64,000 nucleotides of DNA from a candidate division WOR-3 bacterium (GTDB taxonomy: Bacteria; Hydrothermota; Hydrothermia; UBA1063; CAJXJZ01). The stretch is taken from NCBI GenBank assembly GCA_026986775.1, contig JALSNX010000028.1:7609-71608 (forward strand). The letters are read 5' to 3'. Position numbers and translations under genes: made by a program. The notes beneath the pieces are model-generated. The model was given only the letters and a program-made list of their open reading frames with translations. It made no database searches and was not told the origin of the DNA. Below, one piece after another: positions 17,174 to 20,116 of this stretch; positions within the stretch are counted from its first letter, which is position 1, and each line of letters starts with the position of its first letter.

Positions 17174-17661
17174 TAAAAAAGCGCCACTCCTGCAAACACT
17201 GACACTATACCTTCTACTTTCCTTGATATGGTTTTCACCTTTATCTCTTTAACCTTTATACCCCTCATTTCCATGGCATCTTCAGCCATTTGAATAAGAA
17301 GTTTTTCCGCATCCTTTTCTGAGAGATACCCCGAATACTCCATTATCACACCATGCTCCATGGAATTTTCTGGAATGGCTACAGAAATGCCAGCGGTAAT
17401 GAGAGTGCCTTCCTCGGAGCTTTCAATACTTCCATAGGCAATTGGTAGCAGGCTACCTGCAGGAAGGGCTATGGAATTTTGCTCCCTTGCGCCTGGTGGT
17501 AAAATGCTGGATACTCTTATGAGATTGTATCTTGAAATACCAGCATCGTGTAATGCTGCATCAAAGGCATTAAGGTGGGTTCTGCCTCTGCCACTGCCTG
17601 ACACTATTATGAAATTTTCAGGCTTTCCAAACATAGGGCTTTTTGTCTGTAATGATAGCAC
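17173..17661 (-). CDS. pdaD: pyruvoyl-dependent arginine decarboxylase
   Basis: 162 aa; LNAFDAALHDAGISRYNLIRVSSILPP with the self-cleavage Ser-Ser site; alternative start ATG 17634 is possible. Confidence 0.9.
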   Translation of the reverse strand: MLSLQTKSPMFGKPENFIIVSGSGRGRTHLNAFDAALHDAGISRYNLIRVSSILPPGAREQNSIALPAGSLLPIAYGSIESSEEGTLITAGISVAIPENSMEHGVIMEYSGYLSEKDAEKLLIQMAEDAMEMRGIKVKEIKVKTISRKVEGIVSVFAGVALF

Positions 17662-18532
17662 CTTCTCTCATACTCTTTTTCATATATGGAGGAAGAACAG
17701 TCTTTGCAAAAAAGTATTCCGGGGTAAAGTAGTGTATCCTGTCCTTCAAAGCAGCAAATCGCTTTATCATGTCGTTTTTTCTCTCATTGAGCGCGTATTT
17801 CTTTGAAGCGATAAGAAATGCCCAGTTGAGCTGGAATGAAAATATATATTCATGATAACCGAATACAACAGGGAAAACCTCTTTCAATGTGGCACTAAGG
17901 GCTGATATAAACTCTGTGTACAGGTATTCTGCACTGCCTGCCTGCGCCACAAATACAGCATCAGGCGACATTCTGTCCTTCAGTATCTCATAAAAGTCCT
18001 TTGTGAAGAGGTATATGGCAGGTCCCTCCTCTACGGGCTCTGTAAGGTCGGATATAACCACATCAAAAGGCTCTCCACTGTATTCTTCCACAAATTTCCT
18101 TGCATCCTGAAATAAAACAATGCTTCTTTTGTCATCAAAACTACCATCATGCCACGAAGGCAGATACTCTTTGCACATTTTTACAAGTTCTTCATCAATG
18201 TCAACCATGTAAACTTTTTCAACTGGATGTTTTAAAACCTCCCTCAGGGTTGCGCCCTCTCCCCCGCCCATTATAAGGACATTTCGCGGTGCCGGATGAA
18301 GAAGCATTGCAGGATGAACAAGCATATCATGGTAAATATGCTCATCTATTTCTGCTGACTGCAATTTCCCATCAAGAAAAAGGGTTCTACCAAATGCAAA
18401 GAGATCAAGTATTTCAGCATACTGATACATTGTCTTTTTACCTGCCACATACCTCTTCACACGATACTGAAATCTTAAACCTTCAGTGTACGGCTCTTCA
18501 AACCACAAATTACTGTCCGGGTCCTTATCCAT
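17618..18532 (-). CDS. second aminopropyltransferase, GGGEG / DLTEP type (thermospermine-synthase / agmatine-triamine aminopropyltransferase-like)
   Basis: 304 aa; IMGGGEGATLREVLKH, MVDIDEELV, ISDLTEPVEEGPA. These motifs differ from the GGGDG/DSSDP paralog at 16355..17173. Confidence 0.8.
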   Translation of the reverse strand: MDKDPDSNLWFEEPYTEGLRFQYRVKRYVAGKKTMYQYAEILDLFAFGRTLFLDGKLQSAEIDEHIYHDMLVHPAMLLHPAPRNVLIMGGGEGATLREVLKHPVEKVYMVDIDEELVKMCKEYLPSWHDGSFDDKRSIVLFQDARKFVEEYSGEPFDVVISDLTEPVEEGPAIYLFTKDFYEILKDRMSPDAVFVAQAGSAEYLYTEFISALSATLKEVFPVVFGYHEYIFSFQLNWAFLIASKKYALNERKNDMIKRFAALKDRIHYFTPEYFFAKTVLPPYMKKSMREGAIITDKKPYVWKA

Positions 18533-18544
18533 ACACTTCCTACC

Positions 18545-18949
18545 TTACACGTATGCTTCTTCCTTAACTGAATCAGCATATTTGTACATGTCCTGCTCGC
18601 GGAAAACTCCACGCTTCATTTCCATTACAGTCATATGTCCCGGTCTGAAGTACTTTTCAAAGAGTTTTAAAGCCACATCTATATCAACATCATCAGAGCA
18701 GTAGAAATAATCTACAGCAGCATAACCATGTTCAGGCCATGTGTGTATTGAAAGATGGGATTCTTCTATTATAACCACACCTGAGACTCCATGTGGCTGG
18801 AACTGATGGAAGAATGAACCGAGGGCGTGGGCATTGGATTTTTTTGCTATATCAAGGAATGCTCTCTCAACCTGATCCTTATTTTTGAGGGTTTCAGGAT
18901 CACAATCATACATTTCTATTATTACATGCACCCCAAGGGCTTTTTTCAA
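18545..18949 (-). CDS. speH: S-adenosylmethionine decarboxylase proenzyme (small bacterial/archaeal class)
   Basis: 134 aa; self-processing site IIEE/SHLSIHTWPE; TTG start preceded by GGAGGTGGATAA. Confidence 0.9.
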   Translation of the reverse strand: MKKALGVHVIIEMYDCDPETLKNKDQVERAFLDIAKKSNAHALGSFFHQFQPHGVSGVVIIEESHLSIHTWPEHGYAAVDYFYCSDDVDIDVALKLFEKYFRPGHMTVMEMKRGVFREQDMYKYADSVKEEAYV

Positions 18950-19039
18950 TTATCCACCTCCTTTTTTTGTTTTACACATTCACCAGTTATCCAGATAAAG
19001 CCTGCCCAGGTACAAACAGCATCGGGCATACTCACACAT
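18950..19039 (-). promoter_or_regulatory. speH leader with two tandem mini-ORFs (19 and 9 codons) that abut each other and the speH start
   Basis: Minus strand aaaGGGAGGTGatataATG TGT GAG TAT GCC CGA TGC TGT TTG TAC CTG GGC AGG CTT TAT CTG GAT AAC TGG TGA ATG TGT AAA ACA AAA AAA GGA GGT GGA TAA TTG(speH). uORF1 is 19039..18980, uORF2 is 18979..18950. Confidence 0.35.
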
Positions 19040-19070
19040 TATATCACCTCCCTTTCTTTGTGAGTATTTT

Positions 19071-19099
19071 ATTATAGAAAACCATGCCTGCACGGTCAA
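19071..19099 (-). promoter_or_regulatory. sigma70-type promoter for the polyamine operon (TTGACC-N17-TATAAT)
   Basis: Minus strand ccTTGACCgtgcaggcatggttttcTATAATaaaatac: near-consensus hexamers with a 17-nt spacer, about 120 nt upstream of speH. Confidence 0.65.
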
Positions 19100-19150
19100 G
19101 GAAACTCTGAAAATACACGTTGTTTAGATCTCAAAAATGGATGTGCGAAT

Positions 19151-20116
19151 TTATTTCGGAAGGCTAACTTTTATACGTTCATGGGTGTAATCCAACTCGC
19201 ACACAGAACATCGCGAAATCAAATGAGAAAGAAGTGTAGAGTCTTTCCCGAGACCTGTTGCAAAGCCTGTCTCTATGGGGTCTACATTTAAAGGATATAT
19301 GCTGTAATGCACTGAGTCTGAGTCAATTTCAACACTGATAAAAGCCCCATTTACACTCCTTGAGTAAGAACCGAATATGAAATTACCAAGAGAATATGCT
19401 ATGAGTTTTCCCTTATATACCTCAACGGGCTGCACTCTATGGGGATGATGGCCATATACAAGGTCTGCACCGTTATCTATACATTTTCGTGCCATTTCTA
19501 TCTGATATTCCTTTGGCGTATCCATTTTCTCTGCACCAAAATGGAATGCTACTATGAGGAAATCAACCTTTTTTCTCATCTTTCGCACCATGGGAAGGAC
19601 ATTGCCGGGATAGCCGGGTGCAATACCGGGCTTTCTCTTTTCAGCATAAAACTCAAGTGGGAAGGTCATGGCAAAATTCAGAATACCTATTTTGAACCCG
19701 TTTTTTTCAAGCACTACTCCTTTTGAGGCATCTTTGAGATTTGCTCCTGCCCCCGCGTAAAAAAGCCCATGGGCTTTTATTGCCCTTATAGTTGAGAACA
19801 TTCCATCTATACCGTAATCAAGCATATGATTATTGGCAAGAAGGAAAACATTCAAACCATGCTTTTTGAACACCTTCATGAACGCTGGAGGGAATTTGTA
19901 AATGTATTTTTTGTTCGGGAATGGAATACCTGTATCCGTTGCAGGTGATTCAAGATTTACCACATTATAATCAGCCTGATTAAGTACACTATCAATATTG
20001 ACAAAAATTGAATCTGGATTTTTTAAAAGTACGTCCGTCACCCAGTTTGCAGGCATGAAATCACCGAAAAGGTTTATCCTTACCAGAGATGCAATAAGCA
20101 GGAAGGCAAAAATCAT
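19151..20116 (-). CDS. CapA/PGA-capsule-family metallophosphoesterase-like protein
   Basis: 321 aa; N-terminal anchor; motifs NLESP, LANNHMLDYG, GHHPHRVQP typical of the CapA (PGA_cap) family. Confidence 0.8.
   Translation of the reverse strand: MIFAFLLIASLVRINLFGDFMPANWVTDVLLKNPDSIFVNIDSVLNQADYNVVNLESPATDTGIPFPNKKYIYKFPPAFMKVFKKHGLNVFLLANNHMLDYGIDGMFSTIRAIKAHGLFYAGAGANLKDASKGVVLEKNGFKIGILNFAMTFPLEFYAEKRKPGIAPGYPGNVLPMVRKMRKKVDFLIVAFHFGAEKMDTPKEYQIEMARKCIDNGADLVYGHHPHRVQPVEVYKGKLIAYSLGNFIFGSYSRSVNGAFISVEIDSDSVHYSIYPLNVDPIETGFATGLGKDSTLLSHLISRCSVCELDYTHERIKVSLPK

Follow-up and report, generated by a model that had tools for sequence, protein, structure and literature searches.

The 64-kb stretch of DNA analysed here (64,000 nucleotides of contig JALSNX010000028.1 from a candidate division WOR-3 bacterium; hereafter, the window) carries on its minus strand a polyamine operon whose first gene, speH, encodes a pyruvoyl S-adenosylmethionine (AdoMet or SAM) decarboxylase of 134 residues (18545..18949, with a TTG start at 18949; PF02675, E = 7.5e-40). 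The operon reaches 15589, and speH is followed by genes for an aminopropyltransferase, a pyruvoyl arginine decarboxylase, a spermidine synthase and an agmatinase-like protein (PF01564, PF01862, PF00491). We are concerned here with the speH leader, read 5′ to 3′ on the minus strand, and in particular with a short upstream open reading frame (uORF) within it, uORF1, which very probably encodes a conserved, translated regulatory leader peptide.

The leader is preceded by a sigma-70-type promoter, TTGACC-N17-TATAAT, at 19071..19099, which matches the consensus at 11 of 12 positions and whose −10 element ends 31 nt before the ATG of uORF1. A promoter scan of the minus strand over 18400..19700 revealed no other site of this quality. 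uORF1 itself (18980..19039) comprises the candidate leader peptide MCEYARCCLYLGRLYLDNW and a TGA stop codon, and it is preceded, 4 nt 5′ of its ATG, by the Shine–Dalgarno (SD) sequence GGGAGGTGA (19044..19052). Its last eight sense codons (18983..19006) specify the octapeptide G-R-L-Y-L-D-N-W, which on the grounds of its conservation we presume to be an arrest module, and folding and shuffle tests place a hairpin, GCCCGA ... CTGGGC, within the reading frame at 19004..19027. An A-rich spacer of 18 nt (18962..18979) leads from the uORF1 stop to the SD of speH, GGAGGTGGA (18953..18961). uORF1 has initiation signals of its own, lies directly upstream of speH and is predicted to be co-transcribed with it. 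There is another perfect TATAAT, at 19038-19043 on the minus strand, which overlaps the start of uORF1 (GATATAATG); since it has a poor −35 element (TACTCA) and is not kept in relatives, where it reads GATAAT or is missing, it is probably not a promoter.

The closest SpeH proteins are encoded in metagenome-assembled genomes (MAGs) labelled candidate division WOR-3. The upstream regions of 36 loci, collected by a genome scan, a metagenome scan and exact-protein look-ups, represent 14 distinct lineages with an intergenic leader, among which the pairwise identity of SpeH is 47–96%. A homologue of uORF1 is found immediately 5′ of speH in all 14 lineages. The homologous peptides are MCDYARCSLYLGRLYLDNW in L001 and L002, MCEYARCSLYQGMLYLDNW in L003, L011 and L012, MCECARCSLYQGRLYLDNW in L013, MRDGEADKRICVDGLLYLDNW in L004, MRDGEADKRICFCGLLYLDNW in L006, MRDSEADKRICFCGLLYLDNW in L018, MLESDRCVKCIGLLYWDNW in L020 (TAA stop), MCIEDLCVGRVGILYWDNW in L021, MESESEKIVGILYIDNW in L023, MVDGDRCTKICVGLLFIDNW in L027 and MSSDRLCVGKIYIDNW in L031 (TAG stop), together with a divergent version, VNKYNGSVLFFIDDL, in L033, which has a GTG start and a TAA stop.

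In 13 of the 14 lineages, the C-terminus of the uORF1 peptide conforms to G-x-[L/I]-[Y/F]-[L/I/W]-D-N-W-stop; that of L033 is FFIDDL-stop. A stop-anchored alignment of 16 distinct nucleotide versions shows Gly(−8), Asp(−3), Asn(−2) and Trp(−1) to be invariant, and Leu/Ile(−6), Tyr/Phe(−5) and Leu/Ile/Trp(−4) to be nearly so. These residues are encoded by a variety of synonymous codons: GGC, GGG and GGA for Gly, CTT, TTA, CTC and TTG for Leu, TAT and TAC for Tyr, GAT and GAC for Asp, and AAC and AAT for Asn. The column entropies, summed over the last eight codons, are 3.44 at the first codon position, 2.00 at the second and 8.61 at the third, and this third-position periodicity is missing from the four codons preceding the octapeptide. 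The reading frame ranges from 16 to 21 codons in length, its N-terminal half being unalignable and of variable length, and TGA, TAA and TAG each serve as the stop codon among the lineages. Each of 27 loci contains a single copy of the 12-nt motif GAYAAYTGGTRR, always at the uORF, and the window as a whole likewise has one. The variation at third positions, the use of all three stop codons and the variable length together imply that selection acts on the peptide, and does so right up to the stop codon; such a pattern is the signature expected of a nascent-peptide termination-arrest element. The uORF1 peptide module is better conserved than the SpeH enzyme encoded downstream of it. A preliminary description of this leader, which drew attention to uORF1 and its strong SD, overlooked the informative feature, the invariant C-terminal D-N-W-stop.

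A conserved peptide might alternatively be a free micro-protein acting in trans, for example as a modulator of SpeH or of the aminopropyltransferases. Such a role would fit the conservation of the peptide, its genetic linkage to the operon and its cysteines. The conservation is, however, limited to the last eight residues, abutting the stop codon, with an N-terminal half that varies in length and does not align, and this pattern is typical of nascent peptides that act within the ribosomal tunnel. We regard a free micro-protein as improbable in the extreme. Searches of Pfam and NCBIfam gave no match to the uORF peptides at E ≤ 10, and a profile search of the PDB with the peptide returned chance matches only (E = 1.1). 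Nor was an exact copy of any of 10 versions of the peptide or of the extended reading frame present among 15 billion predicted proteins, from which it follows that the uORF has never been called as a gene.

The divergent leader reading frame of L033 (L033:2400-2500, and likewise in L034–L036), V/M-NKYNGSVLFFIDDL-TAA, has its own SD and lies downstream of a TTGACT-17-TATAAT promoter that was located in a separate analysis. Its stop codon is 12 nt before the SD of speH, which here starts with ATG, and its peptide retains Asp(−3) and the hydrophobic run, without Asn-Trp. The family is thus wider than the DNW motif.

The signals that surround uORF1 are also maintained. Of the 14 lineages examined, 12 have a promoter with 11–12 of 12 consensus matches, placed 22–66 nt ahead of the ATG of the uORF; in L031, the leader follows rpmB. 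The SD of the uORF is GGAGGTG in 12 of the 14 lineages, with the weaker forms GAGGT and AGGAGGG in the other two. In all lineages, the uORF stop codon is separated from the GGAGG of speH by an A-rich, C-poor spacer of 11–20 nt, usually with AACAAAAA ahead of GGAGG; the GGAGG lies 11–14 nt before the start codon, and the distance from the uORF stop to the speH start is 23–33 nt. Measured from the Trp codon, the speH start is 29–39 nt away. The start codon of speH is TTG or GTG in each of the 13 lineages with the DNW motif. The promoter, uORF1, its SD and the short A-rich spacer all recur in independent lineages and are beyond chance. In six loci (L004, L006, L017, L018, L020 and L027), which span three diverged lineages, the 14 nt before the speH start contain an out-of-frame ATG mini-ORF of 2–3 codons, in the form ATG ATG AAG TGA, ATG AAG TGA or ATG AAT TGA, whose stop runs into the GTG or TTG with which speH begins.

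The preliminary description had embedded uORF1 in a larger device, in which a 5′ stem-loop gates uORF1 and ribosomes are relayed through a second reading frame, uORF2, to speH, all three in a common frame. Every element of this device can be found in the window. uORF2 (MCKTKKGGG and TAA; 18950..18979) follows directly after the uORF1 stop, its codons GGA GGT GGA form the SD of speH, and the TGA-ATG and TAA-TTG junctions are plausible sites of reinitiation. The 5′ stem pairs TACTCACA (19066..19059) with TGTGAGTA (19036..19029), an 8-bp helix spanning 19029..19066 that was proposed to hide the uORF1 start, holds the uORF1 SD in its loop and comes first among the helices of the minimum-free-energy fold of the leader.

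Comparison with the relatives separates uORF1 from the remainder of this device. The ATG of uORF2 is replaced by ATA in L001 and L003, and in L002 the reading frame is reduced to ATG-TAA; in the distant lineages, no ATG directly follows the uORF1 stop, there being only an out-of-frame ATG that overlaps the stop in L027 (TGATG). The use of GGA GGT GGA codons as the speH SD is confined to this genome or its closest relatives, and the distances from the Trp codon to the speH start span all three frame classes, so that the single reading frame seen in the window does not extend to the family. The 5′ stem occurs in this genome only and is broken, without compensation, in L001, L002 and L003; in L001 and L002, whose SpeH is 96% identical, ACCTGC and TGTGAC stand in place of its arms. 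Moreover, the leader as a whole folds no more stably than shuffled sequences (z = 0.30), and the accessibility of the region from the uORF SD to the ATG varies from 0.10 to 0.93 among the lineages. With the tandem relay, the common frame and the stem missing from relatives whose SpeH is 88–96% identical, as well as from all the distant lineages, we consider the full device very unlikely. uORF2 is specific to this genome and probably fortuitous, and at most would form a local termination–reinitiation relay. The comparison that the preliminary description had itself suggested, of both peptides and of the stop–start geometry, therefore upholds uORF1 and not uORF2 or the shared frame. Its proposal of a translated uORF controlling a bacterial AdoMet decarboxylase, and resembling the eukaryotic uORFs of that enzyme, was right in spirit for uORF1, strongly supported as it is by the conservation of the peptide, and wrong on uORF2, the shared frame and the 5′ stem.

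The geometry of the leader would also be compatible with constitutive translational coupling, in which uORF1 senses nothing and simply loads ribosomes for the weak speH start or keeps the ribosome-binding site (RBS) unfolded. The contrast between the strong SD and ATG of the uORF and the non-ATG start of speH is as expected of such an arrangement, as are the short, constrained spacing and the A-rich, unstructured spacer. Two further loci, L029 and L030, which fall inside the clade by SpeH (65% identity to L023), are instructive in this respect. They have no uORF; instead, speH has moved directly behind a long open reading frame and heads a different gene set, with a gene for a protein of >1300 residues in the position of speE. 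The upstream reading frame (L029:2440-2510, and in L030) encodes an acidic protein of 441–442 residues, and its TGA is 9 nt before the GGAGG of speH, which starts with TTG; the spacing from this stop to the speH SD and start resembles that of the uORF stop. This geometry suggests that expression of speH by coupling to an upstream reading frame is general in the clade. Coupling as such, however, has no need of an invariant octapeptide, and yet the octapeptide has been kept while SpeH diverged to ~50% identity; the C-terminus would have to be retained so as to tune a fixed efficiency of termination and reinitiation. It also leaves unexplained the enrichment of in-frame Cys codons considered below. 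Coupling without sensing thus appears unlikely to be the whole function of uORF1.

The 3′ arm of the hairpin within uORF1 covers codons −10 to −6, with the invariant Gly codon among them, and stops ~18 nt short of the Trp codon. A comparable hairpin is found in 12 of the 14 variants, being absent from L023 and weak in L021; tested one sequence at a time against shuffled 5′ parts, which is the only form of support available for it, its duplex energy gives p values of 0.001–0.2, and these combine over seven lineage groups to a Fisher p of 4e-5. RNAalifold detected 0 consensus pairs in the uORFs, because the hairpin sits in different alignment registers. The CCGA core of the 5′ arm lies in two different reading frames among the lineages, which identifies the hairpin as a feature of the RNA. 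By inference, its 3′ end would lie just behind the trailing edge of a ribosome positioned on the stop codon. We speculate that it serves as a transcription pause or synchronisation element, by analogy with that of speFL (10.1101/604074), or that it limits further loading of the uORF while a ribosome is parked there.

The recurrence of this hairpin raises the question of whether the leader is an RNA element, such as a riboswitch, a pause or terminator hairpin or a protein-binding site, in which the reading frame is incidental. One locus can be read in this sense: in L017 (GCA_054002775.1; L017:2400-2500), the Tyr(−5) codon is replaced by TAA, giving MRDGEADKRICFCGLL, with the downstream CTTGATAATTGGTGA and the remainder of the leader intact, so that nucleotides are kept beyond a nonsense codon. 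The conserved 24 nt nevertheless display third-position periodicity, with switching among the six-fold Leu codons, and the SD and ATG of the uORF are conserved. No consensus structure emerges, and L023 manages without the hairpin. The Rfam 15 covariance models produced no match at the gathering score in the window and 10 loci, and when the leader was searched at E ≤ 10, only snoRNA noise (E ≥ 1) was returned. An RNA element with an incidental reading frame is, in our assessment, highly improbable. Two Myxococcales-like speH loci provide an example of a different kind. L005 (2900-3003) and L009 (243-346) have in common a GC-rich block of ~90 nt directly upstream of speH (...GAGGGAYGCGTGTTGNCTGGGT...GTTGGGCACNAGCCCCCTTT...), in which the nucleotide sequence is preserved despite a 2-nt indel that shifts the frame; it therefore has the appearance of an element of RNA or DNA and not of a peptide. 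This block has no Rfam match, and its folding is not above that of shuffled sequences.

The variable half of the uORF (18983-19036 in the window, and its homologues) is enriched in Cys codons. In the uORF frame, these number 12 of 68, where 2.9 would be expected, an enrichment of approximately four-fold that none of 5000 shuffles reached; the other two frames contain 1 and 7. The cysteines are mostly 9–14 residues before the C-terminus, which by inference would place them near the uL4/uL22 constriction of the tunnel, and they are absent from L023 and L033. These codons might make uORF1 a sensor of cysteine or sulphur status, in which scarcity of Cys-tRNA pauses ribosomes before the stop codon and so lowers or raises speH expression, linking the consumption of SAM to the supply of sulphur in the manner of the mycobacterial polycysteine uORF attenuators. 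Short open reading frames responsive to Cys are a precedent (bioRxiv 10.1101/834739), and the hairpin, followed by the U-rich tract encoding LYL, lies just downstream of the Cys codons. These codons are, however, few (0–3) and scattered, with no runs, and a sensor of this kind leaves the invariant D-N-W-stop unaccounted for. Moreover, no terminator-like site was found in 18400..19700, and there are no consistent alternative structures of the terminator/antiterminator type; an intrinsic terminator or attenuator is rejected for the same reasons. A sensor of cysteine status is, on this evidence, decidedly unlikely.

Two further mechanisms were considered and rejected. Masking of the speH SD that is relieved by a ribosome at the uORF stop is not general, being predicted only in the L004, L006 and L018 lineages and inconsistent elsewhere. 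Readthrough or +1 frameshifting at UGG-UGA was rejected by inspection, because the frames beyond the stop show no conservation and some of the uORFs end in TAA or TAG.

Overall, we conclude that uORF1 is probably a translated, cis-acting leader peptide of the speH operon, representing a new family, that controls translation of speH by way of a ribosome arrested at its own stop codon; the motif G-x-Φ-Y/F-Φ-D-N-W-stop (where Φ is Leu, Ile or Trp) is, as judged from its conservation, a strong candidate for a new family of arrest peptides. On the narrower question of whether slowed termination is the means by which uORF1 acts, we incline, by a small degree, to the view that it is. At the stop codon, peptidyl-tRNA(Trp) would occupy the P site, and the octapeptide, lying in the peptidyl-transferase centre and the upper exit tunnel, would slow hydrolysis by the release factor. 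The spacer lacks both the length and the C content that Rho would need, and there is no conserved hairpin that masks the SD, so that the parked ribosome itself would set the rate of initiation at speH. Where termination is quick, the ribosome or its 30S subunit would be handed over to the adjacent strong SD and weak start, and the site would be left free. Where arrest is prolonged, hand-over would be blocked and the standby region crowded, and speH, with the operon translationally linked to it, would be repressed. Given stalling, we think it fairly probable that the outcome is repression rather than activation, although activation could result instead if the stalled ribosome keeps the RBS open or stabilises the mRNA.

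The most likely effector would be the end product of the pathway, spermidine or a longer polyamine, failing which decarboxylated SAM (dcSAM) or SAM, and its binding would provide a feedback control convergent with that of the eukaryotic AdoMet decarboxylase uORFs. The suggestion of a polyamine, which draws on the analogy with spermidine-dependent stalling on the MAGDIS peptide and on the small uORF of plant AdoMet decarboxylase genes, is a tentative one. Taken in full, the hypothesis would be that uORF1 is the first bacterial arrest peptide to sense a polyamine, dcSAM or SAM in the ribosome, that it represses a biosynthetic operon from one ribosome width upstream, and that it does so through a new, stop-independent motif convergent with the AdoMet decarboxylase uORFs; that all of this should hold together is doubtful.

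Several observations weigh against the interpretation of uORF1 as an arrest peptide, or against repression as its outcome. L033 ends in D-D-L, so that D-N-W itself cannot be obligatory. The nonsense codon in L017 may stem from an error of assembly or from a recent loss or inactivation of the uORF, or else point to constraint at the RNA level. A separation of 29–39 nt between the two P sites is approximately the width of one ribosome, the spacing of collided disomes, and steric occlusion of the speH SD is for this reason not assured, and nor is repression; the predicted folds of L004, L006 and L018 suggest, moreover, that a stalled ribosome may open the speH SD, which would amount to activation. 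Finally, the sample is small and restricted to one candidate phylum and its relatives, and every organism in it is an uncultivated MAG.

Among known systems, uORF1 resembles, in its proposed function, leader peptides that act at termination. TnaC, SpeFL, PepNL and MsrDL block accommodation of the release-factor GGQ motif, and the penultimate residue is important in doing so (PMC11890864). TnaC, PepNL and MsrDL resemble uORF1 in being short uORFs, of only 14 residues in PepNL, and in all three the final few residues ahead of the stop are the critical ones; their sequences are unlike that of uORF1, and Rho mediates the action of TnaC. In PepNL, arrest requires UGA and release factor 2 and is relieved by readthrough by Trp-tRNA, whereas the uORF1 family also uses TAA and TAG. 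SpeFL is similar in setting, as it is a bacterial leader peptide of polyamine metabolism that arrests at its stop codon and has an mRNA hairpin overlapping the leader reading frame; any stop codon is tolerated across species (10.1101/604074). It differs in sensing ornithine upstream of speF in gamma-proteobacteria, by means of a 34-residue peptide in which an HIRRXXH sensor is joined to an aromatic effector domain, and in inducing a catabolic or inducible gene through Rho and a Rho-utilisation (rut) site across a 257-nt spacer. uORF1, by contrast, has 16–21 residues of unrelated sequence and precedes a biosynthetic operon with a stop-to-start distance of 23–33 nt; the long rut-bearing spacer of SpeFL and TnaC has no counterpart in its A-rich, C-poor spacer of 11–20 nt.

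Other leader peptides are related to uORF1 in a looser sense. Those of ermC, cat and cmlA, together with SecM, MifM and VemP, likewise control the next gene in cis by arrest; theirs is an elongation stall that melts a hairpin masking the SD and so activates expression, whereas uORF1 has no conserved masking hairpin and its conservation points to termination. trpL, hisL and the mycobacterial polycysteine uORFs are short leader reading frames before metabolic operons, to which the enrichment of Cys codons offers a parallel; uORF1, in contrast, has neither runs of regulatory codons nor a terminator/antiterminator, and it is a specific C-terminal peptide that is conserved instead.

The eukaryotic counterparts precede the same enzyme. 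In animals and plants, the uORFs of AdoMet decarboxylase mRNAs cause spermidine-dependent stalling at termination, which blocks translation of the main reading frame (PMC2811004, PMC7038982). The MAGDIS uORF of AMD1 and the plant small uORF resemble uORF1 in being short and in position; their control depends on the residues adjoining the stop codon, which is where the conservation of uORF1 lies. MAGDIS and uORF1 both have Asp three residues before the stop, and this is the only residue in common. There is no sequence homology and the decarboxylases belong to different classes, so that the likeness would be one of analogy. The eukaryotic uORFs, furthermore, depend on cap scanning, whereas initiation at uORF1 depends on an SD; in the absence of scanning, a stalled ribosome on uORF1 must act locally, on the neighbouring RBS. 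Our survey of the literature found no report of a bacterial speH/speD leader peptide; an earlier description is possible, many subscription papers being outside its coverage.

Further downstream in the window operon, the listed GTG-start reading frame for the arginine decarboxylase overlaps the aminopropyltransferase gene by 44 nt (17618-17661, minus strand), the corresponding overlap in relatives being 29 nt. The decarboxylase may start at a codon 3′ of the one listed; alternatively, the pair may be closely coupled.

As far as its sequence indicates, the uORF1 family is a new example of a regulatory nascent leader peptide and a member of no known family. Sensing of metabolites on the ribosome by nascent peptides is, to our knowledge, represented by a handful of bacterial cases, none of which controls an AdoMet decarboxylase, an enzyme that in eukaryotes is the textbook case of control by a uORF peptide. 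If the proposed function is correct, the committed step of higher-polyamine synthesis would have come under the same regulatory logic by independent evolution, and a short new arrest motif, of eight conserved residues followed by any stop codon, would become available for structural and synthetic-biology work. It would mean, in addition, that regulation can be read from the genomes of an uncultivated phylum through comparative analysis alone. The feedback regulation of speH and speD in bacteria is a long-standing gap, which a leader of 100 nt would now make directly testable.

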